The translations under genes were made by a program, and so were the position numbers. From an uncultured bacterium (GTDB taxonomy: Bacteria > DYJV01), in assembly GCA_964543655.1 (NCBI GenBank), contig CAZIZE010000072.1, forward strand, positions 1 through 38,471: a stretch of DNA of 38,471 nt, in the 5' to 3' direction. Below are positions 3,827-17,235 of this stretch, piece after piece; the stretch's first letter is position 1; each line of letters begins with the position of its first letter. The notes beneath the pieces are model-generated. The model ran no database searches, had not been told where the DNA came from, and saw nothing but the letters and a program-made list of their open reading frames with translations.

Positions 3827-3855
3827 TTGACAAATAGATTTTTTGGTGCTATAAG
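3827..3855 (+). promoter_or_regulatory. Sigma-70 promoter of the tRNA genes
   Basis: TTGACA(3827-3832)-17 bp-TATAAG(3850-3855) with TG extension, A-tract upstream and GC-rich discriminator, 15 bp before tRNA-Gly. Confidence 0.75.
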
Positions 3856-3870
3856 CCGTCAAAATTTAGA

Positions 3871-3945
3871 GCGGGAATAACTCAGCGGTAGAGTGCGACC
3901 TTGCCAAGGTCGAAGTCGCGGGTTCAAATCCCGTTTCCCGCTCCA
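3871..3945 (+). tRNA. tRNA-Gly(GCC)
   Basis: Cloverleaf GCGGGAA/TTCCCGC; anticodon arm CGACC-TTGCCAA-GGTCG; GGTTCAAATC T-arm; encoded CCA. Confidence 0.97.
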
Positions 3946-3952
3946 TAAGTTT

Positions 3953-4024
<72 letters not shown>

Positions 4025-4057
4025 TAAAGTCATAAAAATATAAGGAGAATAAATTTT

Positions 4058-4138
4058 ATGAACAAAATTTTTTATAATACAAATTTTTATTTCTGGTTTT
4101 ATTTTAAAAAAAATATGAGAGAGGTACGCCCACGGTAG
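4058..4138 (+). CDS. Aromatic amino-acid operon leader peptide, 26 aa MNKIFYNTNFYFWFYFKKNMREVRPR
   Basis: Translated by hand; AAGGAG SD at 4042-4047; seven consecutive aromatic codons (FYFWFYF); directly upstream of a terminator and the aro/tyr/phe/trp genes. Confidence 0.85.
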   Translation: MNKIFYNTNFYFWFYFKKNMREVRPR

Positions 4139-4172
4139 GGTTTTATTTTTTTTATATATAAAAGCCGTGAGC
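4128..4172 (+). promoter_or_regulatory. Predicted antiterminator pairing
   Basis: GCCCACGGT (4128-4136) can pair with GCCGTGAGC (4164-4172) at 8 of 9 positions including one G-U, sequestering the 5' arm of the terminator. Confidence 0.65.
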
Positions 4173-4194
4173 TAAGCCTCACGGCTTTTTTTTT
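4160..4194 (+). terminator. Intrinsic terminator (attenuator)
   Basis: GCCGTGAG-ctaagc-CTCACGGC followed by T9, ending 27 bp before the first structural gene. Confidence 0.9.
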
Positions 4195-4221
4195 GCCAAA
4201 AAAATTTGGAGGTAATTTAAA

Positions 4222-5022
4222 ATGATTGGTAAACTTATTAGGATGGAGAGAATTAAAGATAGGGAGAGTAACAAATTCCTTATCTTGCCACTTGACCATG
4301 GTGTTACAGTTGGGCCCATTCATGGTATTACTAACTTAAAAGAGGTGGTTGATTTAGCTGCTGAAGGTGGTGCAACTGCTGTTGTTGAGCATAAAGGAAT
4401 GGTTACAGCTGGTTACAGAGGTGGGGGAAAAGACATTGGATTAATTGTCCATCTCTCTGCATCAACAAATCTTTCTGAATATGCAAACACAAAAACAATT
4501 GTAGGGACAGTTGAAGAAGCTATTAAACTTGGCGCAGATGGAGTTTCTATTCATGTTAATATTGGTGATGTTAATGAAAGGGAAATGTTGAAAGATTTTG
4601 GATTAATTTCCAAAAAGGCTCATGAATGGGGGATGCCACTTCTTGCAATGGTTTATCCACGGGGCAATGGCATTTCCAATGGATATGACCCAAAGTTAAT
4701 TGCTCATTGTGCAAGGCTTGGTGCTGAGCTTGGTGCTGATATTGTAAAAGTGTCTTACTCAGGGGATATAGAGTCTTTTTCTAAAGTTGTTGAAGCTACT
4801 CCAATACCTGTTGTTATTGCTGGTGGTGAAAAAATGGATTCAGAAAAAGATGTTCTTGTAATGGTGGAGGAAGCATTAAAAGCAGGAGCAGCTGGTATTT
4901 CAATTGGTAGAAACATTTTTCAGAATAAAAACCCAAAAAAGATGATTCAAGCGTTAGCCATGATTATAAAGAATGGAAAATCAGCTGAAGAAGCTGAAGA
5001 TTTCCTGAGAAATGGAGAATAA
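4222..5022 (+). CDS. aroA': 2-amino-3,7-dideoxy-D-threo-hept-6-ulosonate (ADH) synthase, DhnA-type class I aldolase family
   Basis: [39 protein letters not shown]; adjacent to DHQ synthase II. Confidence 0.85.
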
Positions 5023-5023
5023 A

Positions 5024-5998
5024 ATGAGAGAAGTATGGTTAAAAGTGGAAAGTTTTAATAAAGAATTAATTACCACTGCAATAGAGCTTGGTATTAATAC
5101 TTTTTTTGTTACAGATGAAGATGATAAATATAGAATTACAAATTTAGCAAAGGTTAATGTTTTTACCAATAAGGATGTTTATGAATTTATTTATAAAAAT
5201 CGAGATGATGAAGATAAAATAGTTGAACTTTCAAAAGATAATAATCTTATATTAAAAACAGAATCGTGGGAAGTGATTCCGTGGGAAAACTTAATAGCAA
5301 AAAAGGCAAGGTTTTTTGTGTATGTTACCAGTGATACTGAGTTAAAAACAGCTCTTGGAGTTCTTGAAAAGGGAGTTTCAGGGATTATTCTTAAAGTTGA
5401 TTCTGTGGAAAAACTTAGAGACATGGTTAAGTTAATAAAAGATGATGATGCTTCAATAATTTTAGAAGAAGCTGAAATTGTCAATATTCAGGTTCTTGAT
5501 TCTGGTGAACGAGTTTGCATTGATACATGTAATCTTATGTCAAAGGGTGAAGGTATACTTGTTGGTAGTAGTAGTAACTTCTTATTTTTAATTCATTCAG
5601 AATCTTTACAAAATCCTTACTGTGACCCAAGACCTTTTAGAGTTAACGCTGGAGCAGTGTATGCGTATGTTAGAGTTAATCAGGAAAGGACAAAGTATCT
5701 TTCTGAGTTAAAATCAGGTGACGAGGTGCTAATTGTAAATTCAAATGGTAGAATTAGAAAAGGCATTGTTGGGAGAAGCAAAATTGAAACAAGACCCCTT
5801 ATATTAATAGAAGCAGAGTTCTCAGGTCAGGTTTTTTCAGTTATTCTACAAAATGCAGAGACTATTAATCTTGTTTCTCCAGATGGTGAGCCTATATCAG
5901 TTTCAAAGTTAAAAAAAGGTGATAAAGTTTTAATTTCAGCAGAATCTGGTGGAAGGCATTTTGGAAGAAAAATTGAGGAGAATATAGTTGAAAAATGA
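5024..5998 (+). CDS. aroB': 3-dehydroquinate synthase II (archaeal-type, oxidative deaminating)
   Basis: WEVIPWENLIA, RVCIDTC, RPFRVNAGAV, TKYLSEL, LQNAETI, GRHFG; start 5024 (GGAG SD) or 5012. Confidence 0.9.
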   Translation: MREVWLKVESFNKELITTAIELGINTFFVTDEDDKYRITNLAKVNVFTNKDVYEFIYKNRDDEDKIVELSKDNNLILKTESWEVIPWENLIAKKARFFVYVTSDTELKTALGVLEKGVSGIILKVDSVEKLRDMVKLIKDDDASIILEEAEIVNIQVLDSGERVCIDTCNLMSKGEGILVGSSSNFLFLIHSESLQNPYCDPRPFRVNAGAVYAYVRVNQERTKYLSELKSGDEVLIVNSNGRIRKGIVGRSKIETRPLILIEAEFSGQVFSVILQNAETINLVSPDGEPISVSKLKKGDKVLISAESGGRHFGRKIEENIVEK

Positions 5999-6737
5999 CT
6001 TCATTGTTGGGATAATTGGTGGAAATGGTAGAATGGGAGTAGCTTTAAATGATTTTTTCAAATCTAAAAAAGTTGAAACAATAGTTTCTGATATTAATTT
6101 GAAAATTTCAAATAAGGAATTAACAAAAAATGCTGATATTGTAGTTATTTCTACTCCTGTGACAATTTATGAGAAGATTTTAGAAGAAATATATGAAGAA
6201 TTAAATGAAGATAAAATGCTGATGGATATTGGTTCTTTAAAATTTAGAGAAGTAGCTATAATGAAAAAATATTTTTCAGGTGAAATTTTAGCAACTCACC
6301 CTCTTTTTGGCCCTGAGAAGAGATTTAAAGGAAAAGAAAATAATATTGTAATTAGCAGGTTTAATAGCAGTGAAAAAACTGAGTTTGTTCTGAAGTTGCT
6401 TAGAGAAAATCAATTAAATATTATTGAGATGACTCCAGAGGAGCATGACAAAACAATGGCTTATATTCATGGCTTTTACTATTTGATGAATATTACATAT
6501 ATTGAAATTTTGCAGAATAACTTTAAATCATTTGGAAAAATAAAAGATTTAAAAACCACATCATTTTCAAAATATATAGAAAATCTTAAAAATAATATTT
6601 TTAATACACAGGATAGTTTGATTGAGCTTATAGCTTATGAGAATCCATTTATAAAAGAAGTTGTTGATGAATTTCATAAAAACCTTTTCAAAAAGGTTGA
6701 TTTTAGTAAATTGAAAGGATTTCTTGAAAATGAATAA
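5988..6737 (+). CDS. tyrA: Prephenate/arogenate dehydrogenase
   Basis: GIIGGNGRMG, DIGSLK, HPLFGP and EEHD motifs; TTG start with GAGGAG SD. Confidence 0.88.
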   Translation: MKNDFIVGIIGGNGRMGVALNDFFKSKKVETIVSDINLKISNKELTKNADIVVISTPVTIYEKILEEIYEELNEDKMLMDIGSLKFREVAIMKKYFSGEILATHPLFGPEKRFKGKENNIVISRFNSSEKTEFVLKLLRENQLNIIEMTPEEHDKTMAYIHGFYYLMNITYIEILQNNFKSFGKIKDLKTTSFSKYIENLKNNIFNTQDSLIELIAYENPFIKEVVDEFHKNLFKKVDFSKLKGFLENE

Positions 6738-7800
6738 ATGGGAAATTGATTTAAAAAATTATAGAAAGAAAATAGATGAAATTGATGATAAATTAGTTTC
6801 ACTTTTAAATGAAAGAACTATTTATTCAAAAAAAATTGGTGAAATTAAAAATAGATATGGATTGCAATTAATTGATTATTCCAGAGAAAAAGAGGTTATT
6901 AAAAAAATCTTGAAAAAATCTTCTATGATTATCCCTGAACGTGATTTAAAAAATATTTATAGAGAGATAATAGCATCCTCACGAAAAATTCAGAAGTCAT
7001 ACACAATAAGCTTTCTTGGACCAAAGGGGACTTTTTCTAATATAGTTTTTGAAAAATTTTTTGGAAAAAATACAAATTATGATCTTTGTAGAAACATTAG
7101 AGAGATTTTTCAAAATGTTGTTAGTAAAGATTCAAAATTTGGTATAGTGCCTGTTGAAAATTCCATTGAGGGAAGTGTTTCAGAGACACTTGATTATCTT
7201 TATCATTTTGATGTAAATATCTGGGCAGAGTTAAAATTAAAAGTAAGTTTCCATCTTGCATCATATTTCAATTCTGAGAAAATCAGAAAAATATATTCTC
7301 ATCCACATGCAATAGCACAATGCCGTGGGTTTATTGATAAAAATTTCCCTGATGCTGAACTTATACCTCTTTCAAGCACAGCAGAAGGGATAAAATTTTT
7401 AAAAGATGATAGAGAAAGTGCAGTAATTGTTTCACCATATTCAATTGAAATTTATAATCTGAAAGTTATTAGCAAAAATATAGAAGATGCTGTAAATAAT
7501 TTTACACGTTTTTTTGTTATTTCAAAAGATGAAAATAATCTTACAGAAGGTAGCAAAACTTCATTTATTTTTGCTGTGTCACATCAGCCAAAGAGCCTTT
7601 TTAATGCCCTTCAAATAGTTGCTGATAACAACCTGAATATGTGCAAAATAGAGTCACGGCCAATAAAAGAAATTCCATGGGAATATCTATTTTTTGTTGA
7701 TATTGAAGGTAAGGTTAATGAATCTTTTTACACTAATTTTAAAACCAATACTACTTTTTTTAAAAAATTAGGTACATATCCAGTGGAGTTTTTGGAATGA
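6730..7800 (+). CDS. pheA: Chorismate mutase / prephenate dehydratase (P-protein)
   Basis: RKKIDEID..LLNER chorismate mutase domain; LGPKGTFS, PVENSIEG, SHPHAIAQC, NFTRF, IESRP; start 6730 or TTG 6724. Confidence 0.92.
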   Translation: MNKWEIDLKNYRKKIDEIDDKLVSLLNERTIYSKKIGEIKNRYGLQLIDYSREKEVIKKILKKSSMIIPERDLKNIYREIIASSRKIQKSYTISFLGPKGTFSNIVFEKFFGKNTNYDLCRNIREIFQNVVSKDSKFGIVPVENSIEGSVSETLDYLYHFDVNIWAELKLKVSFHLASYFNSEKIRKIYSHPHAIAQCRGFIDKNFPDAELIPLSSTAEGIKFLKDDRESAVIVSPYSIEIYNLKVISKNIEDAVNNFTRFFVISKDENNLTEGSKTSFIFAVSHQPKSLFNALQIVADNNLNMCKIESRPIKEIPWEYLFFVDIEGKVNESFYTNFKTNTTFFKKLGTYPVEFLE

Positions 7801-9251
7801 TTTATCCAGATTATGAAAATTTTAAAAAAATAAAAGAGAAATATGAAAAAATTACAATATATAAAGAGGTTTTTGCTGATACTTTTACACCAATCTCTTT
7901 TTTAATGAATTATGCAACAGAAGATTACATATTTCTACTTGAAAGTGTAAATATAGATAAAACTTTTTCAAGATTTTCATTTTTTGGCATAAAGCCAGCA
8001 AAAATTATTTATGGCGTAAAAGATAAGACCTATGTTGTCAAAGATAATCAAAAAAAAGAAATAGATTTGAATATAGTTGATTATTTACAGATAAATTATA
8101 AAAAACAACCCCAATTTAGTTCAGGTGAGTATGGTGATTTTGCAGGGGGATTGGTTGGATTTTTTGGATATGAATCAATGAATTTTATGAATTTTTTAAG
8201 AAAAAATGTAAAAATGGATAGTAGTATTCACTCAGCTTTTTTTGAAGTAAATGATTTTTTTGTTTTTGATAATTTTAAAAATAAGCTATATTTAGCAAAG
8301 TGTATTAATAACAATGATATAGAATATTTTGAAGCAGTTGAAAATTTAAAAAAATTTCAGATTAAAATAAATGAGAATGCCAATGAGTATAAATCTTTTG
8401 AAAAAATAGATTTTTTACCAGAATACAAAAAGTATGAATTTATTGATAGAGTTAAAGCAATAAAAAATGAAATTATTAATGGTGAGGCGATTCAAATTGT
8501 TTTTTCTCAGAAATTTAGTATTGATGCAAATATTAATCCAATTTCATTTTATAGAGGTTTGAGGAAAATAAATCCATCACCATACATGTTCTTTTTGAAG
8601 TTTAAACAGAATATCATCACTGGTTCATCACCAGAAACACATTTGAAAGTTAAGGATTCATTTGCTCTTCTTAAGCCAATTGCTGGCACTTATCCTGTTG
8701 AAAGAGATATAGATAAAGTGAAAAAAAGATTGTTAAATGATGAAAAAGAGATGGCAGAGCATTTAATGTTGCTTGATCTTGCAAGAAACGACCTTTATCA
8801 AGGTTGTAATATAGATAGTGTGAAAGTTAATAAATCTTTTGTAACAGAGGTATATTCCCATGTTGTTCACATTGTCTCAGAAGTTACAGGAAAACTTGCA
8901 GGTAATTTTAGTTCATTTGACCTTTTTTTAAAAACCTTTCCTGCTGGCACTGTGTCAGGTGCTCCAAAAGTTAGGGCTATAGAGTTAATAAATGAATATG
9001 AAAATTCTGTTAGAGGTTTTTATGCTGGATGTGTTGGATATTTTGGTTATAACCATGATCTTGATACTTGCATTACAATTAGAAGTGCTCATTTTTCAGA
9101 GAACAGTGTTGTTGTGAGAGCTGGTGCAGGTATTGTTTATGATAGTATTCCGGAGAATGAGTTTACAGAAGTAAATAGAAAATTAAAAGCACTTTTTAAA
9201 GCATTTGAAATAATTAAGGAGATTGAATATACCAATGTTTTTGTTAGTTGA
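7797..9251 (+). CDS. trpE: Anthranilate synthase component I
   Basis: LLES, NPSPYM, GSSPE, PIAGT, EHLMLLDLARND, FPAGTVSGAPK, AGAGIVYDS. Confidence 0.92.
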   Translation: MIYPDYENFKKIKEKYEKITIYKEVFADTFTPISFLMNYATEDYIFLLESVNIDKTFSRFSFFGIKPAKIIYGVKDKTYVVKDNQKKEIDLNIVDYLQINYKKQPQFSSGEYGDFAGGLVGFFGYESMNFMNFLRKNVKMDSSIHSAFFEVNDFFVFDNFKNKLYLAKCINNNDIEYFEAVENLKKFQIKINENANEYKSFEKIDFLPEYKKYEFIDRVKAIKNEIINGEAIQIVFSQKFSIDANINPISFYRGLRKINPSPYMFFLKFKQNIITGSSPETHLKVKDSFALLKPIAGTYPVERDIDKVKKRLLNDEKEMAEHLMLLDLARNDLYQGCNIDSVKVNKSFVTEVYSHVVHIVSEVTGKLAGNFSSFDLFLKTFPAGTVSGAPKVRAIELINEYENSVRGFYAGCVGYFGYNHDLDTCITIRSAHFSENSVVVRAGAGIVYDSIPENEFTEVNRKLKALFKAFEIIKEIEYTNVFVS

Positions 9252-9792
9252 TAATTACGATTCTTTTACCTACAATCTTTATGCACTTATGAAAAAATGT
9301 GGAGTTGAAGTTAAAGTTGTAAAAAACAATGAATTTTTTACTGATATTAACCTATCTGCAATTGTAATATCTCCTGGACCATCAAGTCCTGAAAATTCAG
9401 GTACCACTATGCAATATTTAAAAAAATTTGCTGGTATTGTGCCAATTTTTGGAGTTTGTCTCGGAATGCAATGTATTGGCTATTTTCTTGGATATAAGAT
9501 TCATCAATCAAAGAAAATTATGCATGGGAAGGTGGATAAGATAGTAAAAATTAGAGAAAGTTCCCTTTTGCAAGGAATAAATCAAAAATTTAAAGCTGTT
9601 AGATATCATTCCCTATCTGTTGCAGCTAAAAGAGACGATAATATTGTTACAGCTGTTGCAGAGTCTGATAATGAGATAATGGTAATAGAGGATTTAGAAA
9701 AGAAATTATTTGGGGTGCAGTTCCATCCAGAATCTTTTTTAAGTGAGTATGGAGATAAGATTTTTAAAAATTTTTTGAAGTTGGTTGTTTAA
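9235..9792 (+). CDS. trpG: Anthranilate synthase component II (glutamine amidotransferase)
   Basis: DNYDSFTYNL, SPGP, GVCLGMQ, RYHSL, QFHPES; start moved to ATG 9235. Confidence 0.92.
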   Translation: MFLLVDNYDSFTYNLYALMKKCGVEVKVVKNNEFFTDINLSAIVISPGPSSPENSGTTMQYLKKFAGIVPIFGVCLGMQCIGYFLGYKIHQSKKIMHGKVDKIVKIRESSLLQGINQKFKAVRYHSLSVAAKRDDNIVTAVAESDNEIMVIEDLEKKLFGVQFHPESFLSEYGDKIFKNFLKLVV

Positions 9793-9815
9793 TGTGAAAT
9801 ATGGTGGCTATTGAC

Positions 9816-9937
9816 TGATACAAAACCAACTTTAAAGCAAGAGATTTTTCGGGCTAAAACCCTCAAAATGACAGCTTTTGTGGAAAATAGAAGCACTTGT
9901 AAAAATGCTGATAGATTTTTTATTTGGTTTTGTATAA
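9816..9937. mobile_element. MITE-like repeat family A, copy 2, between trpG and trpD
   Basis: ATACAAAACCAA (9818-9829)...TTGGTTTTGTAT (9924-9935); colinear with 128-252. Confidence 0.8.
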
Positions 9938-9958
9938 CAATCATCAATGGGGGAGTAA

Positions 9959-10957
9959 ATGGATAAAAAATTAATTTTAAAAAAAATTGTTGAAAAGCAA
10001 GATTTGCATATAGAGGAAAGTGAGTTTATATTTAATCAAATTTTTCAAGGTAAATTAGATGAAATAGAAATAGCATCATTTTTAACTGCTTTAAAAGTCA
10101 AAGGAGAATCTCCTGAGGAAATAGCAGGAGCTATTAAAATTTTAGATAAAAAAAAGGTTAAAATAGAGAGAGGAAGAGAGTTTGCAATTGATACATGCGG
10201 CACAGGTGGTGATGGTAAAAAGTGTATAAATGTATCAACTGCAGTTGCTATTACATTATCAACCGCCGGGATAAAAGTTGTGAAACATGGAAATTCTGCT
10301 CAAAGTGGCTTTCTTGGGTCAGCTGATATTTTAAAAGAGTTTAATATACCGTTCAATTTTGACACAGATGCAGCAATAAATTTTTTTAAAAATAACTCTT
10401 TTGTTTTTCTATTTGCACCATTATATCATCCAGCTATGAAATATGTTGTACCCATTAGAAAAAAGCTTGGTTTTCCTACAATATTCAATTTTATCGGACC
10501 TTTTATAAACCCTGCTGAGCCAGATTTTCAAGTTACAGGAATCAGCAATATGAAAAATCTTGAGAATATAGTAAATGCGTTAAGTAAAGCTGGGAAGCAA
10601 AATATAATAATTTATTCATCAGAAGATGGTTATGATGAAATATCCACAAAAGCACCAACAAGATGTTTTGAAATAAATTCAGAAATAAAAGATTTTATAA
10701 TTTATCCAGAAGATTATTTTGAACCATTTGAAATGCCAGAAGTTAAAGATAGAGAAGATGCAAAATATATGTTCATTGAAGCTATTTCTGGTAGAAGTGA
10801 TGAATTAGCAAAGTTAATTTCAATAAATGCAATGCTACCCTTTTGCAGAGCAAGAGGTGTTGATTTTAAGGAAGGGTATAATTTCTGTTATGATTTGATT
10901 AAATCAGGAAAAGTTTTAGAAAAATTTAAAAAGTTGCAGAATAGAAAAGGTAATTGA
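9959..10957 (+). CDS. trpD: Anthranilate phosphoribosyltransferase
   Basis: DTCGTGGDG, NVST, KHGN, GSAD, YHPAMK, DGYDEIS. Confidence 0.93.
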   Translation: MDKKLILKKIVEKQDLHIEESEFIFNQIFQGKLDEIEIASFLTALKVKGESPEEIAGAIKILDKKKVKIERGREFAIDTCGTGGDGKKCINVSTAVAITLSTAGIKVVKHGNSAQSGFLGSADILKEFNIPFNFDTDAAINFFKNNSFVFLFAPLYHPAMKYVVPIRKKLGFPTIFNFIGPFINPAEPDFQVTGISNMKNLENIVNALSKAGKQNIIIYSSEDGYDEISTKAPTRCFEINSEIKDFIIYPEDYFEPFEMPEVKDREDAKYMFIEAISGRSDELAKLISINAMLPFCRARGVDFKEGYNFCYDLIKSGKVLEKFKKLQNRKGN

Positions 10958-11052
10958 GTTTAGAATGCTTAGAATGAACTGGAGAAAATGGAGTTTGGAG
11001 TAGGGATGAATATAAATGACTAACAACCAATAACCAATAGGGGATATTTATA

Positions 11053-11802
11053 ATGATAACACTTGAAACAATTTTAAATAGTAAAAGAGAAGAGATTAAA
11101 TCTATAAAAAAGATAAATTGCAAAAGGAATAGAAAAATTTTTGAATTATCTGATTATATCATTGAGAAACCATTTATTGCTGAGGTAAAAAAAAGCTCCC
11201 CTTCATTAGGCCATATTAATCTTAACATTAATCATATTGAGCAGGCAAAAAAATATGAACAATTTGGAGCTGGATGCATAAGTGTTTTAACAGATAAAAC
11301 TTTTTTCAGTGGTGATATTGAATATTTGTATGAAATTAGTAGGTCTGTTAATCTCCCAATTTTATGTAAAGATTTTATTTTAAGTGAAATACAGATATTA
11401 AACGCTTATATTTCAGGGGCAGATGTTGTTTTAATAATTGTTTCTATTTTAAATGACTCAGAACTTGAACTGCTTGTAAATTATTCAAAAAATTTAGGTC
11501 TAAATATCCTTTATGAGCTACATTCATATAGAGACTTTGAAAGGATTAAGAATTTAGAACCAAAATATGTGGGGGTTAATAGCAGAAATTTCAATAATAT
11601 GAAAATAGAAAAAGATAGAGCATTAAACCTTATAAAAAAATTAGAAGGCAATTTTATAAAAATAGCAGAAAGTGGAATAGAAACAGGGAAAGATATTAAA
11701 TTATTTAAAAATGCAGGTGCAGATGCTTTTCTCATAGGGACATCATTAATGCTGTCAAATAATCTAAGAGAAAAATTCAAGGAATTTTACAGTTGTTTGT
11801 AA
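11053..11802 (+). CDS. trpC: Indole-3-glycerol phosphate synthase
   Basis: IAEVKKSSPS, ISVLTD, PILCKDF, GVNSRN, AESGI, LIGTSLM. Confidence 0.93.
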   Translation: MITLETILNSKREEIKSIKKINCKRNRKIFELSDYIIEKPFIAEVKKSSPSLGHINLNINHIEQAKKYEQFGAGCISVLTDKTFFSGDIEYLYEISRSVNLPILCKDFILSEIQILNAYISGADVVLIIVSILNDSELELLVNYSKNLGLNILYELHSYRDFERIKNLEPKYVGVNSRNFNNMKIEKDRALNLIKKLEGNFIKIAESGIETGKDIKLFKNAGADAFLIGTSLMLSNNLREKFKEFYSCL

Positions 11803-12338
11803 AAATTTGTGGAATTAGAGAAAAGAGAGAGATAGATTGGGCTGTTAGTCTTGGGTATAATGCAATTGGTATTGTTGTTTATCCTTTAAGTAAGAGATTT
11901 GTTCCCACCAATAGAGCAATAGAATTAATAAATTATGCTAAAGGAAAAATTTTAACAGTAGTTGTTAGTTTGAATTATAGAGATGTAAAAGATTTTGAAA
12001 ATATATCTGATTTTGTTCAAATATATGAGTATGTTAATTTAAAGGGTTTAATTTATGCAACAGATTCTCCACCAAAATATCAAAATTTTTCTTATCTGCT
12101 TTATGATTCAAGTAAAGGTTCAGGTAAATTTAAAGAGATTCCTGAATGGGTTATTGATTTCAGAGATAGATTAATTGTTGCTGGTGGTTTAAATAGCAAA
12201 AATGTAAAAGATGTGATTGATTATATACAGCCATTTGGAGTGGATGTGTCAAGTTCAGTGGAAAAAGATGGGAAAAAAGATTTTAAATTAATGAAAGAGT
12301 TTATGGAGTATGGAGTACGTAGGAATAGGGATGTTTAG
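11793..12338 (+). CDS. trpF: Phosphoribosylanthranilate isomerase (compact)
   Basis: VKICGI, SKRFV, AGGLN, GVDVSSSVE; TTG start. Confidence 0.9.
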   Translation: MFVKICGIREKREIDWAVSLGYNAIGIVVYPLSKRFVPTNRAIELINYAKGKILTVVVSLNYRDVKDFENISDFVQIYEYVNLKGLIYATDSPPKYQNFSYLLYDSSKGSGKFKEIPEWVIDFRDRLIVAGGLNSKNVKDVIDYIQPFGVDVSSSVEKDGKKDFKLMKEFMEYGVRRNRDV

Positions 12339-12420
12339 GGTATAGTTATTAAAGGTTGATATACAATTATTTTATTAGCTATTAACGACTAAAGAATAAC
12401 AACAAACTCTGGAGGAGAGA

Positions 12421-13572
12421 ATGAAAGGATTTTATGGGGAGTTTGGTGGACAGTTTGTGGCAGAGACATTGATTCCATGTCTTGATGAACTGGAAAACTG
12501 TTTTTTGGAAATTAAAAAGAACAGGGAATTTAAGAAAGAATTAAAAGAATTATTGCACAATTTTGCTGGAAGACCAACACCTATTTATTTTTGCAAAAAT
12601 CTGTCAAAAGCGTATGAGATTGAGCTTTATTTAAAAAGAGAAGATTTACTACATACTGGTGCACATAAAATTAATAATACCATAGGTCAGGCTTTACTTG
12701 CAAAATTCATTGGAAAAAAGAGAGTTATTGCTGAAACAGGTGCTGGTCAGCATGGTGTTGCCACAGCTACAGCAGCAGCATTACTTAATCTTGAATGTGT
12801 AATTTATATGGGTAGGATTGATGCAGAAAGGCAGAAAATTAATGTGGAAAGAATGAAATTACTTGGAGCAGATGTAAATATAGTTAATTCAGGCTCAAAA
12901 ACTTTGAAAGATGCTGTTAGTGCAGCACTTAGAGATTGGGTTTCTTCTTTCCCTTATACACATTATATTATAGGCTCTGTTGTTGGTCCGTATCCTTTTC
13001 CTGAGGTAGTTGCTTATTTTCAATCAATTATTGGAAAAGAAGCAAAAAAGTATTTTAATAAAATTGGAAAAATTCCAGACTATGTTGTGGCATGTGTTGG
13101 TGGTGGCAGCAATGCAATTGGAATTTTTAAAGGATTTTTAAAAGATAAGGTTAAATTAATTGGAGTTGAAGCTGGTGGAGTCACAGGTGACCCAGGTAAG
13201 CATGCTATGAGTATAGGCAAAGGAGAAAAGGGTATTTTTCAGGGCAGTTTATCGTATGTTATTCAAAATGATAATTTTCAGATAAATGATGTTCATTCTA
13301 TCTCAGCAGGACTTGATTATCCAGGAATAGGTCCAGAACATGCATATTTAAATGATATAAGAAGAGTAAAGTATGTAAGTGCCTCAGATAATGATGCACT
13401 TTTTGGATTTTATGAACTTAGCAGAAAAGAAGGAATAATTCCTGCACTTGAATCAAGCCATGCTGTTGGATATGTTTTGAAAAATAGAGAAAAGTTTAAA
13501 AATAAGATAGTATTAATTAATCTATCTGGAAGAGGAGATAAAGATATTGGTATTGTTTTAAAGATGAATTGA
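12421..13572 (+). CDS. trpB: Tryptophan synthase beta chain
   Basis: [49 protein letters not shown]. Confidence 0.96.
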
Positions 13573-13634
13573 GATTGGAGAATGGATATAGGTTGCCTAA
13601 CAACTAAGAAATAACAACCAACATTGGAGGGATT

Positions 13635-14327
13635 ATGAAAGGTATTTACATTGTAGGTGGGTATCCTAATTTAAATGATTTTAAAAAGCAAATTGAGATT
13701 ATCAATAATATTAATATTGATTTTATAGAAATAGGAATTCCTTTTAATGATCCAGTTGCTGATGGACCTGTTATAGCAAAAGCTATTAATGAAACAGTTA
13801 ATCATAATTATAGTGTAGATGAAATTTTAGAAATAGCACAGCAAACAGATAAGCCTTTTTATATTATGACATATGCAAACATTATTTACAAATATGGAGC
13901 TGAAAAATTTTCAGAAAAGTATGGTAATGTTATTAAAGGTTTAATTATTGCAGATTTACCCAATAGATTACATAAATATTTTTACAATCTTGGACTTAAA
14001 ATTCCTATAATACCTTTTGTTACAGTTGAAACAAGAGAAGAAGATTTTGAACTTATTAAAAAATTAAAAGGTGATTTTATCTATTTTATTGGAACAAGGG
14101 GAACTACAGGAGTAAAGGTTGATTTTAATAGTAAATTATTAAAGGATAGAGCAATTGAAATTAGAAATAGATTGAATAAGAAATTTATTATTGGATTTGG
14201 AATTAAAAATAGAGAAGATTATATGAAGGTTTTAGAGTATGCTGATGGTTTTGTTATTGGTACAGAAATAGTAAAAAAGCAGGATAATTTAAGAGAATTT
14301 GAAATCTTTTTAAAAAGTTTATTTTAG
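13635..14327 (+). CDS. trpA: Tryptophan synthase alpha chain (compact, 230 aa)
   Basis: IEIGIPFNDPVADGPVI, MTYAN, GTTG, GFGI, DGFVIGT. Confidence 0.92.
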   Translation: MKGIYIVGGYPNLNDFKKQIEIINNINIDFIEIGIPFNDPVADGPVIAKAINETVNHNYSVDEILEIAQQTDKPFYIMTYANIIYKYGAEKFSEKYGNVIKGLIIADLPNRLHKYFYNLGLKIPIIPFVTVETREEDFELIKKLKGDFIYFIGTRGTTGVKVDFNSKLLKDRAIEIRNRLNKKFIIGFGIKNREDYMKVLEYADGFVIGTEIVKKQDNLREFEIFLKSLF

Positions 14328-14336
14328 AGGGGAAAA

Positions 14337-15587
14337 ATGATAGAAATAGATATTCCTGGTTCTAAGAGTATAACCCAGAGGGCAATAATTTGCTCCTGTT
14401 TGGCAAATGGAGAATCAATTTTAACTAATCCACTTTTGTGTGAAGATTCCATTTACTTAATCAAAGGATTAAAAAGACTTGGAATTAAAATAGATTGTTT
14501 GGAGAATAGAATAGAGATTAATGGAAATGGTGGTATTTTTAAGGATAACGGTAAAGCTGAAATTTTTATGGGAAACAATGGCACAGGTTACAGATTTTTA
14601 TTAACACTTTCCAATTTCTATAAAAATCAACTAATCTTAACTGGAAATGAAAAATTACAACAAAGGCCAATAAAACCACTTGTGGATTCATTGCTTAATT
14701 TAAGGTTTAATATTGAATATTTGAAAAGGAAAGGTTATCCACCAGTTAAAATTTTACCAACAAAAGTTAATTTTAATAAAAAAATTAATGTTAAAATAGA
14801 TGCATCAGTTAGCAGCCAATTTATTTCATCTCTTTTATTATCAGGGATATTTTTTAAAAAAGGTATTGAGGTAATTACAGAGGGAAGAGTTGTTTCTACA
14901 CCTTATATTGAAATAACATTAAAGGTAATGAAAGATTTTGGAGTAGATGTTTTTACCAGTAAGAACAGATTTACAATCCCAGAATTTTCAACATATAAAT
15001 GCAGAACGTATAATATAGAGGGGGATTTTTCCTCTGCATCATATTTTATGGGTGCTGCTTTTTTTTTAAAAAAGGAGATTAAATTAAAAAATCTAAATTA
15101 TGAAACTTCATTGCAGGGAGATAAACATTTTATAAAAGTTTTAGAGAAAATGGGTGGAAAATTTGAAATTTTGAAAAATGAAATAGTTGTTAAACCAGCT
15201 CCTTTACATGGTATTACTATTGATATGAATAAAATGCCTGATATTGTACCAACACTATCTGTAGTGGCAAGTATTGCAAAGGGCAACACATTAATAAAAA
15301 ATATAAAGCATCTCAGATATAAAGAAACAGATAGGATTAATGCAATTTGTAAAAATTTAAATTCTATTGGTATTATTGCAGAAAATGGCGATGATTATAT
15401 CTTGATAAAGCCTTTTATTGGTAAAGAAAGATGTTTTAACAAAGTTATAGACCCAGAAGATGACCATAGAATTGCTATGAGTTTTGCACTGTTTAAACTT
15501 ATTGGCTGGGATGTAAATATATTAAACAAAGAATGTGTTAAAAAATCTTTTCCAGATTTCTGGAAATTATTTGAAACATTGTTTTAA
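14337..15587 (+). CDS. aroA: 3-phosphoshikimate 1-carboxyvinyltransferase (EPSP synthase)
   Basis: PGSKSITQR, GNNGTGYR, SSQFISS, EGDFSSA, LRYKETDR, DHRIAMSF, KSFPDF. Confidence 0.94.
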   Translation: MIEIDIPGSKSITQRAIICSCLANGESILTNPLLCEDSIYLIKGLKRLGIKIDCLENRIEINGNGGIFKDNGKAEIFMGNNGTGYRFLLTLSNFYKNQLILTGNEKLQQRPIKPLVDSLLNLRFNIEYLKRKGYPPVKILPTKVNFNKKINVKIDASVSSQFISSLLLSGIFFKKGIEVITEGRVVSTPYIEITLKVMKDFGVDVFTSKNRFTIPEFSTYKCRTYNIEGDFSSASYFMGAAFFLKKEIKLKNLNYETSLQGDKHFIKVLEKMGGKFEILKNEIVVKPAPLHGITIDMNKMPDIVPTLSVVASIAKGNTLIKNIKHLRYKETDRINAICKNLNSIGIIAENGDDYILIKPFIGKERCFNKVIDPEDDHRIAMSFALFKLIGWDVNILNKECVKKSFPDFWKLFETLF

Positions 15588-15771
15588 TTTTTTTTAAAAA
15601 AGTGTTGACTTTGAAAAAAATTAATGTTAATTAAAAAAAGTTAATTTTGGCCGATAATAATTTGTAAATAAAATTATTTGAGAAAGAAAGGAGGTGGAAG
15701 ATAGTTTTCAAAGAGTTAATATTTATAAGTAGTGCCAATAATATTAAAATTCTTAAAGGAGGGTATCAAAA

Positions 15772-17235
15772 ATGAAGAAGTGGTTAAGTTTTTTATTTGT
15801 AGCTATTGTTCTTTGTTGGGCAGCTAATTCATTTGCTGCTATGGGTTATGTTAGTGCAAAATCAAGTGATGTTGATATTAAATTGTTTGGTTCTGAGCAA
15901 ATGTGGCCTACATTTATCCACAATGCAAGCTTTAACAGTGATGACAAAAAGTTTGACTGGATAGGTAGAGAAGATGGCCATGAAAAGCAATTTGATATTA
16001 GAAACCAGTTTAGAATGGGCTGGAAAATTACAGGTAATAAATGGTCTGGATTTTTTATTTTAGAAGATGATGTTAATGCCACTAAAACTAATATTGATAG
16101 ATCTGAAAATGGTAACAATGGTTCAGCTGCATTTGGTTTAGAAAAATTAGAGTTCCACTATAACTTCAGTAAATATTTCATCTGGGAATTAGGTTGGAAT
16201 GGTAAAGCTCTTGATATTAAAACAGGTGGTTTAGTTTATACAGATGACCACCCATTTATAGGCTTCAAAGGTGGAGATAAAAACTGGAAATACGAAGTTC
16301 TTTTTATGGCAATTAGAAATGATGGAAAAGATGGTTTGCATATTAGGACTGGTGTAAACAACTGGTCTGGTGTTCAGGACAACCTTTTTGCTTACACAGC
16401 TAAATTATACTACACATTTGATACAGGTAGTGGTAAATTAACATTTGCTCCTTTCTTTGCATGGCAACAAAATCAAATAGCAAGAGCTGATGCTTACTAC
16501 TTTGGTTTTGAATTGTTTGGAAAACTTGGAATTATTGTTCCAAGATTAGAGTTAGTATATGTTACTGGTAAGCAGGATGGTGTAACTCTTGCTAATGGAA
16601 CTAAAGATGATTTAGATATTGATGCTTGGGCAGGTTTCTGGTCATTAGAATTTGATCTTAACAAAGCATTTAATCCATACTTTGGTATGTGGTATATTCA
16701 GGGTGATGATGATGGTAATGATGGTGATGAGCACAACTTCCAAGGTATTACTAATATAGCTAAGTTTACTCCTACATTTGGTATGGGTTATGGTGACTCT
16801 TTAACAGATACAAACATTATTCTTGGTACAGTTCTCTACTCAATCAACCCAACACTTGCTAACTTAAAAGGTGGAGCAGGATATGGTGCTATTGGTGGTT
16901 CTGCTAAAACAGGTGGCCCTGGTGTTATCTTCTACGGGATTGGTTTTAAAGGTGATTTAAGTGATGTTATGGCTAAAGGACTTAGCTATAAACTTCAAGG
17001 TTACTATATGGAATATGAAGATACAGGTGCTATGGAAGATTACTATGGCAAGGATATTGATGAAGAAATGGGCTGGGGTATTGCATTTAACTTAAAATAT
17101 CAAATTAACAAACATTTCTATATTTTAAACACATTTAATGTATTTGATCCAGGTGATGGTATTGAAGATAAATGGGGAAATGATTATGATGACACAATGT
17201 ACACAAATACTACAGAATTTGCATGGAAATGGTAG
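15772..17235 (+). CDS. Outer-membrane beta-barrel / porin-like protein
   Basis: Signal peptide ending SFA-A; Gly/Asp/aromatic-rich; C-terminal TEFAWKW; frequent TAC/AAC/TTC codons; own terminator. Confidence 0.75.
   Translation: MKKWLSFLFVAIVLCWAANSFAAMGYVSAKSSDVDIKLFGSEQMWPTFIHNASFNSDDKKFDWIGREDGHEKQFDIRNQFRMGWKITGNKWSGFFILEDDVNATKTNIDRSENGNNGSAAFGLEKLEFHYNFSKYFIWELGWNGKALDIKTGGLVYTDDHPFIGFKGGDKNWKYEVLFMAIRNDGKDGLHIRTGVNNWSGVQDNLFAYTAKLYYTFDTGSGKLTFAPFFAWQQNQIARADAYYFGFELFGKLGIIVPRLELVYVTGKQDGVTLANGTKDDLDIDAWAGFWSLEFDLNKAFNPYFGMWYIQGDDDGNDGDEHNFQGITNIAKFTPTFGMGYGDSLTDTNIILGTVLYSINPTLANLKGGAGYGAIGGSAKTGGPGVIFYGIGFKGDLSDVMAKGLSYKLQGYYMEYEDTGAMEDYYGKDIDEEMGWGIAFNLKYQINKHFYILNTFNVFDPGDGIEDKWGNDYDDTMYTNTTEFAWKW

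Follow-up and report, generated by a model that had tools for sequence, protein, structure and literature searches.

In the pheL-pheA, pheM-pheST and trpL-trpEDCBA systems of Escherichia coli, a short open reading frame (ORF) led by a Shine-Dalgarno (SD) sequence and carrying clustered codons for the cognate amino acid precedes a terminator and an alternative antiterminator. The stop codon is sited such that a terminating ribosome masks the antiterminator strand, and a local hairpin of the 1:2 type together with the terminator sets the default 'off' state. The E. coli ilvGMEDA (Ile/Leu/Val) and thr (Thr/Ile) attenuators are moreover multivalent, a single leader combining the codons of several amino acids made by one branched pathway. 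Here we describe an element resembling both groups in a stretch of 38,471 nucleotides (nt) from an uncultured bacterium (contig CAZIZE010000072.1 of assembly GCA_964543655.1, forward strand), hereafter termed the window. It lies before a 12-gene aromatic supra-operon starting with aroA', and its leader ORF mixes Phe, Tyr and Trp codons. With a probability of roughly 0.85, we consider it to be a ribosome-mediated leader-peptide transcription attenuator of the classical type.

This element differs from pheL and trpL in lacking any sequence or structure match to them even at E ≤ 1, in mixing the codons of three amino acids, and in the operon behind it, which comprises the common pathway plus three branches, begins with archaeal-type aroA' and aroB' genes and would be fed from a tRNA promoter. 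The ilvGMEDA and thr leaders serve a different pathway and are unrelated in sequence, and the effect of each amino acid is predicted here from sequence. An Rfam cmscan of the window (E ≤ 1) returned 15 matches, of which only two, both tRNAs, passed the gathering threshold. No amino-acid operon leader family, such as Phe_leader (RF01859) or Trp_leader (RF00513), was among them, and the leader-type rows rimP and L20 scored far below gathering.

Two further described leaders are comparable. In Corynebacterium glutamicum, the aroR leader (Phe-Tyr-Phe) is reported to attenuate aroF, encoding the first shikimate enzyme, and to respond to Phe only (Neshat et al. 2014, as described in PMC11802643 and PMC4046766). 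Unlike the present leader, aroR has three control codons, none for Trp, and precedes a 3-deoxy-D-arabino-heptulosonate 7-phosphate (DAHP) synthase operon rather than a 12-gene supra-operon. The uORFC-13-1 motif, located 5' of aroF in Acholeplasma, is a predicted upstream ORF (uORF) with Phe codons next to a terminator (PMC8632094). The motif is of the U-run/Phe type with no Tyr/Trp mix described, and it belongs to another clade and another entry enzyme. The accessible part of Rodionov 2004 (PMC545781) does not mention aromatic attenuation. Our literature search found no published Phe+Tyr+Trp leader before aroA' or before a supra-operon; older comparative studies may contain such a prediction.

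Leader anatomy and conservation

The element is composed of the following parts.

4042..4047, + strand: Shine-Dalgarno sequence AAGGAG, 10 nt 5' of the ATG; SD-like motifs occur in 7/7 aligned leaders
4058..4138, + strand: leader ORF, ATG at 4058, 26 codons plus TAG at 4136-4138, encoding the peptide MNKIFYNTNFYFWFYFKKNMREVRPR
4085..4105, + strand: control codons F-Y-F-W-F-Y-F (TTT TAT TTC TGG TTT TAT TTT), seven in a row
4128..4136, + strand: antiterminator 5' strand GCCCACGGU, sharing bases with the final three codons and the T of the TAG
4116..4154, + strand: local hairpin P1, an A-U/G·U-rich outer helix (4116-4126/4144-4154) enclosing GCCC/GGGU (4128-4131/4138-4141)
4160..4194, + strand: intrinsic terminator, 12-bp stem 4160-4171/4178-4189, 6-nt loop, T9 at 4186-4194

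The peptide MNKIFYNTNFYFWFYFKKNMREVRPR contains 5 Phe, 3 Tyr and 1 Trp, so that 9/26 codons are aromatic; the single Trp codon (TGG) is at 4094-4096 and two aromatic codons outside the run are at 4070-4075. The terminator core GCCGTGAG/CTCACGGC (4164-4171/4178-4185) is lengthened by A-U pairs to a stem spanning 4160-4189, with a hairpin energy of -17.5 kcal/mol. Its 5' arm (4164-4172) is common to terminator and antiterminator: GCCCACGGU pairs with GCCGUGAGC (4164-4172) through 8 pairs, including one G·U, around one C·A mismatch (RNAduplex, -13.4 kcal/mol). Direct reading of the sequence reproduced to the base the SD at 4042-4047, the 26-codon ORF, the FYFWFYF run at 4085-4105 and the TAG at 4136 that the original prediction had given, and confirmed both its terminator (core 4164-4185 plus T9) and the complementarity of 4128-4136 to the 5' arm. 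The tRNA genes upstream of the leader and the competing hairpin at 4116-4154 were absent from that prediction. Its interpretation of the locus as trpL/pheL-type holds, given an SD and start codon, clustered cognate codons, a terminator without promoter room behind it, an alternative pairing that a ribosome could cover, and conservation.

The phylum consists of six species genomes, five of which have an aroA' orthologue; below, G000 denotes the genome of the window, G001 its congener and G002-G004 further relatives within the phylum. The regions upstream of 12 aroA' loci were read, five of these being the orthologues (80-100 % identity). The leader-terminator unit precedes aroA' in 5/5 genomes having the gene, in each case with an SD, an aromatic ORF of 24-27 codons closed by CGG and a TAG or TAA stop, and a terminator of the form GCCGTG(A/G)G...C(T/C)CACGGC followed by a T9-T10 run. 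The unit is absent at the other 7/12 loci, which are two paralogues and five distant homologues. Metagenome contigs added the leaders L031 (leader region identical to that of the window), L053 and L055, and the orthologous leader ORFs in relatives measure 22-27 codons. Across an alignment of seven sequences, three features are retained while other residues drift: the GCCGTG(A/G)G terminator, the run of aromatic codons, and the stop codon lying in frame within ACGGTA(G/A). The terminator is paired in 94 % of alignment cells and includes one compensatory A-U/G-C pair. The antiterminator core, 8 pairs between 4129-4136 and 4164-4171, is paired in 54/56 cells as compared to 34-53 % with a slid partner, both unpaired cells being C·A, one in the window and the other in G001. 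Pro-to-Leu changes at the penultimate codon (CCA to TTA/CTA) retain a G-C pair as G·U; since these C-to-U changes keep the pairing, the constraint points to the RNA level and not to the peptide level.

Chance was assessed within the genome of the window, which is 94 % complete and has 29.7 % GC. A 7-of-7 aromatic run was found at 12 of the 75,048 small ORF starts of the whole genome (12-45 codons). Genome-wide, 20 small ORFs combine an SD-like motif with a perfect-stem terminator and two of them are aromatic-rich, namely the window leader and a paralogue at G000:C50:9891-9944. A caveat attached to the leader when it was predicted, that low GC favours TTT and TAT codons, is addressed by these two counts, which speak against chance, and a fortuitous origin of the leader-terminator arrangement is excluded. 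A Leu-rich small ORF on C41, taken up as another candidate leader, was dropped, as it lies inside a 353-aa ORF.

Leader codons and operon content

The operon behind the window leader was delineated from ORFs and Pfam matches and encodes all three branches (Phe, Tyr and Trp).

4222..15587, + strand: operon span, 12 genes, ORFs and Pfam
4222, + strand: aroA', DeoC-type aldolase by Pfam
5012, + strand: aroB', DHQS II by Pfam
5988, + strand: tyrA, ORF and Pfam
6724, + strand: pheA, chorismate mutase-prephenate dehydratase (CM-PDT), ORF and Pfam
7797, + strand: trpE, ORF and Pfam
9223, + strand: trpG, ORF and Pfam
9959, + strand: trpD, ORF and Pfam
11053, + strand: trpC, ORF and Pfam
11793, + strand: trpF, ORF and Pfam
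12421, + strand: trpB, ORF and Pfam
13635, + strand: trpA, ORF and Pfam
14337, + strand: aroA, EPSPS, ORF and Pfam

The pheA and trpE genes overlap by 4 nt and the trp genes here are therefore without a leader of their own; no strong internal terminator was found in 4200-16000. Judged from sequence, the most telling evidence for aromatic attenuation appears to be that the codon mix of each leader tracks the content of the operon that follows. Where the operon is fused behind a single leader, this leader has Trp codons inside the Phe/Tyr run, one in G000 and two in G001. In G002, the operon stops at pheA (aroA'-aroB'-tyrA-pheA) and Trp codons are missing from its leader; a separate trpEGDCFBA-aroA'2 operon has its own leader (L145:1472-1531) with WWW and terminators. 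Separate trpE loci with W-rich leaders are also found in G003 (L150:3094-3159) and G004 (L149:3035-3103). The trp leader of G004 ends in CCG CGG TAG followed by the GCCGTGGG terminator, the same 3' architecture as in the aromatic leader. The aroA' operon of G003 encodes common-pathway enzymes, and the aroA' contig of G004 is too short to show the downstream genes.

A paralogous leader, found in each of the six genomes with two copies in G004, precedes a gene resembling the DAHP-synthase ferredoxin-like domain (DAHPS-FL) and has Phe and Tyr codons only, with 0 Trp in 7/7 copies. In the genome of the window this leader (G000:C50:9891-9944, L137:1892-1945) encodes MISRSNFYFYFYFKRPR and has its own SD and a promoter-like TTGACT, with two terminators in tandem extending to about C50:10034. 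The gene after it is a 75-aa ORF with a sub-threshold DAHPS-FL match (24.1 bits, cut-off 27), beyond which lie an XRE-cupin regulator, 2-oxoacid:ferredoxin oxidoreductase subunits and an IorA-like gene. The MISRSNFYFYFYFKRPR-type unit is kept in all five relatives, G004 having two leader-terminator units in tandem (L143).

Further copies of aroA' and of the leader were encountered in these genomes. Second aroA' copies, 62-68 % identical to that of the window, occur in G002 (C150, L145:7881-8705), as the last gene of the trp operon, and in G003 (C88, L026), standing alone without a leader. A third leader of G000 (C85:36816-36875, minus strand) has WWW and the same GCCGTGAG...CTCACGGC terminator, and precedes a small orphan gene and hisF. 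It begins MM, as do the trp-operon leaders of G002 and G003, and might be the remnant of a trp leader left after the trp genes moved behind pheA.

Outside the phylum, species genomes were scanned with an AroA' alignment, yielding 80 loci, 77 of them with at least 200 nt of upstream sequence. Requiring at least 6 aromatic residues in a stretch of 7, an aromatic uORF was found 5' of aroA' at 44/77 loci, as compared to 1/77 in a reverse-complement control; 35 of these uORFs contain Trp and 34 contain all three aromatic residues. The 44 loci are mostly from Desulfobacterota (Desulfobacterales, Pseudodesulfovibrio, Desulfobotulus, Desulfosudis and Desulfobacca), and include one Syntrophorhabdus and one Aquificota metagenome-assembled genome; among the scanned aroA' loci, those of Aquificaceae type had no aromatic uORF. 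Among 24 metagenome contigs read by eye, a leader was seen in 12 and none in the archaeal-looking ones (L032 and L039, having no upstream DNA, were excluded). Terminators and pairing were tested at 49 loci, comprising the 44 and five of the six with a 5-of-7 stretch (L136 left out). A terminator is present at 48/49. Pairing of the uORF 3' end with the terminator 5' arm averages -15.7 kcal/mol vs -10.9 kcal/mol for shuffles, with z < -2 in 22/48 loci and z < -1 in 33/48.

The comparison of Trp codons with trp genes outside the phylum covers three of ten named genomes, G042, G046 and G045, the contig of a fourth, G041, ending before aroA'. In Pseudodesulfovibrio G042, the leader of the supra-operon with trp genes is of the F/Y/W type, and that of a stand-alone aroA' paralogue, which has an MltC-like gene behind it, is of the F-only type. 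In G046, a leader with W has trpE 5.2 kb downstream; in G045, the leader lacks W and trpE is about 7 kb upstream of it. Stand-alone aroA' paralogues behind Phe-only leaders, e.g. MTHNSARFFFFFSFNDRNACGLGVR, were likewise noticed in the Pseudodesulfovibrio loci L117, L096 and L128, the downstream gene having been checked for L117. They are reminiscent of the amino-acid-specific DAHP-synthase isozymes of E. coli, with control here, judging from the sequence, by attenuation. The original prediction had been unsure whether such a leader was already reported in related taxa; by sequence it is widely conserved, and no published description was found. The mechanism is a textbook one, and the three-amino-acid variant is conserved widely and is not unique to this lineage.

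Promoter, alternative pairings and proposed mechanism

Three further features lie upstream of the leader.

3827..3855, + strand: promoter-like site, TTGACA at 3827-3832, 17-nt spacer, TGcTATAAG with the -10 at 3850-3855, picked by eye
3871..3945, + strand: tRNA-Gly(GCC), ARAGORN; Rfam tRNA 69.4 bits; between the promoter-like site and the leader
3953..4024, + strand: tRNA-Cys(GCA), ARAGORN and Rfam; 33 nt from the leader ATG

The TTGACA/TATAAG site is the sole candidate promoter 5' of the leader; a consensus promoter scan skipped it, its rule demanding a T at the final -10 position. The gap between the end of tRNA-Cys and the leader ATG is 33 nt and contains no terminator, and the T-run is separated from the aroA' ATG by 27 nt. 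Given these two short gaps, the site 5' of the tRNAs is the only promoter-like site, so that the operon would be expressed solely by read-through of the terminator at 4160-4194. The tRNA-Gly/tRNA-Cys pair is found 5' of the leader only in this genus (G000 and G001). Upstream tRNAs are absent at the four other loci compared (L003, L004, L005 and L055); L003-L005 have the same TTGACA-type site directly 5' of the leader, and outside this genus the promoter stands immediately before the leader in the relatives compared, without tRNAs. RNA polymerase starting at a tRNA promoter would accordingly make the aromatic operon of the window as a tRNA-mRNA co-transcript, and the attenuator would also terminate the tRNA unit.

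We infer the following ribosome positions and kinetics. Transcription would most likely start at 3827-3855, pass tRNA-Gly and tRNA-Cys and enter the leader, whose 26-codon ORF would be translated. With charged tRNA-Phe, tRNA-Tyr and probably tRNA-Trp plentiful, the ribosome would reach the TAG at 4136 and cover the region around and including 4128-4136, after which the terminator (4160-4189 plus T9) would form and transcription would stop 27 nt before aroA'. If one of these tRNAs were poorly charged, the ribosome would stall within FYFWFYF (4085-4105), leaving 4128-4136 free to pair with 4164-4172 before the terminator 3' arm exists, and transcription would read through into the 12 genes. Without translation, or with a stall far upstream, P1 (4116-4154) would hold the antiterminator strand and termination would prevail.

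Folding was predicted to examine this scheme. The region 4025-4200 folds with z = -4.27 (0/200 shuffles fold as well). P1 is present in both the minimum free energy and the centroid folds, at -12.8 kcal/mol at 37 °C, and is predicted to sequester the antiterminator strand, which would make it an anti-antiterminator or a pause-like element. Six distinct sequences were then folded with the final aromatic codon in the ribosomal A site and the terminator 3' arm not yet made. At 37 °C, the probability of the antiterminator core was 0.99-1.0 in three of the six (L003, L005 and L055), 0.51 in G001 and 0.37 in L004. Placing the ribosome on the stop codon instead gave the terminator alone in 6/6 sequences. 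Folding the leader with and without a ribosome, a check that had been proposed along with the leader, thus predicted termination for a ribosome at the stop codon, and left the antiterminator of the window itself marginal upon stalling.

Several observations weigh against the proposed attenuation or against its three-way form. For the window, the antiterminator core has a probability of 0.21 with a stall on the last Phe codon at 37 °C, its antiterminator being predicted at -11.8 kcal/mol against -12.8 kcal/mol for P1, the stronger of the two at this temperature; the C·A mismatch interrupts the antiterminator in both the window and the congener G001, and values of 0.39-0.90 are reached only at 60 °C. 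With a stall on the Trp codon of the window, the probability climbs from 0.00 (37 °C) through 0.04 (50 °C) and 0.39 (60 °C) to 0.76 (70 °C), P1, with its A-U and G·U pairs, being predicted to melt first; the 30 tRNAs of the genome, looked at for growth temperature, have a mean GC of 58.8 %. Covariation is not significant in the shallow 7-sequence alignment, the antiterminator score being reached by 354/500 shuffles and the terminator score by 10/500. The search for conserved F/Y/W-rich uORFs and compensatory stem changes advocated by the original prediction therefore yielded the uORFs and one compensatory pair, and no significant covariation. At 15/48 loci outside the phylum there is no excess complementarity (z > -1). 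The promoter at 3827-3855 was assigned by eye and is putative. Among 22 sequencing runs listed, in which two DNA runs, the better of them perhaps the source sample, hold at least half of the sampled words of the stretch, six RNA runs hold 0.06-0.09, taken to be the conserved tRNA part. As for codon content, the dedicated trp leaders of the phylum carry 3-4 Trp codons vs one in the window, and the aroA' leaders of G003 and G004 retain one Trp codon although trpE has its own leader, so that the correlation is not strict. In these models, the geometry fits the classical mechanism, with a thin, marginal antiterminator in the window.

Two observations concern the operon and its surroundings. In the trpG-trpD gap (9793-9958, 166 nt), a stretch ...GATTTTTCGGGCTAAAACCCTCAAAATGACAGCTTTT... 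closely resembles intergenic DNA on contig C20 and may be a small dispersed repeat within the operon. Just 3' of the operon, a 487-aa ORF (15772-17235) has no Pfam match at E ≤ 1e-5.

Amino acids sensed, alternative explanations and significance

Sensing of Phe and Tyr is well supported by the comparison with relatives. Sensing of Trp through the single codon is plausible, at about even odds. The proposal that one leader integrates all three amino acids is supported by the way leader composition tracks operon content, and a response to Trp through a lone codon would be its more conjectural part. A wider scenario, which we hold tentatively and at slightly less than an even chance, is that of one old and widespread family of aromatic attenuators with a codon mix tuned to the downstream genes: F/Y/W before trp-containing supra-operons, F/Y or F before Phe/Tyr operons, stand-alone aroA' isozymes or the DAHPS-FL-like small protein, and WWW before trp operons. 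The trp genes of this genus would have been fused behind pheA and have lost their own leader, leaving the lone Trp codon as the only transcriptional Trp sensor, in a three-way multivalent attenuation starting from a tRNA promoter.

The alternative that survives best is a sub-case of attenuation, in which the attenuator is real and in practice senses Phe and Tyr only, Trp being controlled elsewhere, e.g. by feedback inhibition of TrpE/TrpG. We regard this as unlikely, though a serious contender. The window leader has one Trp codon against 8 Phe/Tyr codons, the dedicated trp leaders of G002-G004 have the 3-4 Trp codons mentioned above, and the predicted antiterminator is nearly absent upon a Trp-codon stall at 37 °C and 50 °C. 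C. glutamicum aroR is reported to have Phe-Tyr-Phe yet to respond to Phe and not to Tyr (PMC11802643), and the presence of a codon is therefore no proof of sensing. However, TGG is not favoured at 29.7 % GC and is nevertheless found in the aromatic run of 5/6 distinct aroA' leaders of the phylum, and Trp occurs in 35/44 leaders from other genomes. Trp is also absent from the 7/7 paralogous leaders before a non-trp gene and is encoded twice in G001, and the fused trp genes, with pheA and trpE overlapping by 4 nt, have no other leader.

Much less probable is that the uORF is incidental and that the terminator is controlled by a trans factor or ligand, be it a tRNA acting through a T-box, a riboswitch ligand or a TRAP-like protein. 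Terminator/antiterminator switches are common to many mechanisms, and the aromatic supra-operon of Bacillus subtilis is TRAP-controlled. However, no Rfam family besides the two tRNAs reached threshold in the window scan, there were 0 gathering-level matches in the seven related loci, and the T-box in particular had no Rfam match in the window or in these loci. TRAP (mtrB, PF02081) had 0 matches in the 94 % complete genome G000, the B. subtilis control genome giving a match. The leader, of about 100 nt and mostly A/U, has no conserved structured domain 5' of the switch.

We consider it very improbable that the hairpin does no more than end tRNA-Gly/tRNA-Cys transcription and that the small ORF is an artefact of AT-rich composition. 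The tRNAs are indeed directly upstream, the hairpin is the first terminator after them, and TTT and TAT are common codons at 29.7 % GC. The comparative data already contradict this explanation, as G002, G003, G004 and L055 have leader and terminator without an upstream tRNA, the aromatic frame, SD and stop position are conserved, and only 2/20 ORFs with SD and terminator are aromatic-rich genome-wide. It would also leave a 12-gene operon promoterless. Finally, a TnaC-like arrest, in which the nascent peptide acts as the sensor and a C-terminal Pro-Arg-stop stalls the terminating ribosome in response to a free aromatic amino acid and so alters terminator formation, is suggested by Arg-stop in 7/7 and Pro-Arg-stop in 5/7 aligned leaders and by the similar ends of the paralogues. 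It is just as improbable, because Pro is lost to Leu through C-to-U changes that preserve pairing with the terminator arm, pointing to RNA-level selection, the remaining peptide is unconserved except in being aromatic, and a ribosome halted at the stop codon would mask the antiterminator strand, promoting termination where a biosynthetic operon under shortage needs the reverse.

The element leaves the concept of attenuation itself unchanged. For a phylum of six species that is uncultured and barely known, it supplies a specific regulatory element of aromatic amino-acid synthesis that can be put to the test. By extension, the same holds for many sulfate reducers using the archaeal-type aroA'/aroB' entry route, a description of whose regulation was not found. 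It also supplies a simple annotation rule, an aromatic uORF plus a terminator 5' of aroA'. The fission and fusion of these operons, with matching changes in leader codons, constitute a natural experiment on the re-programming of an attenuator.

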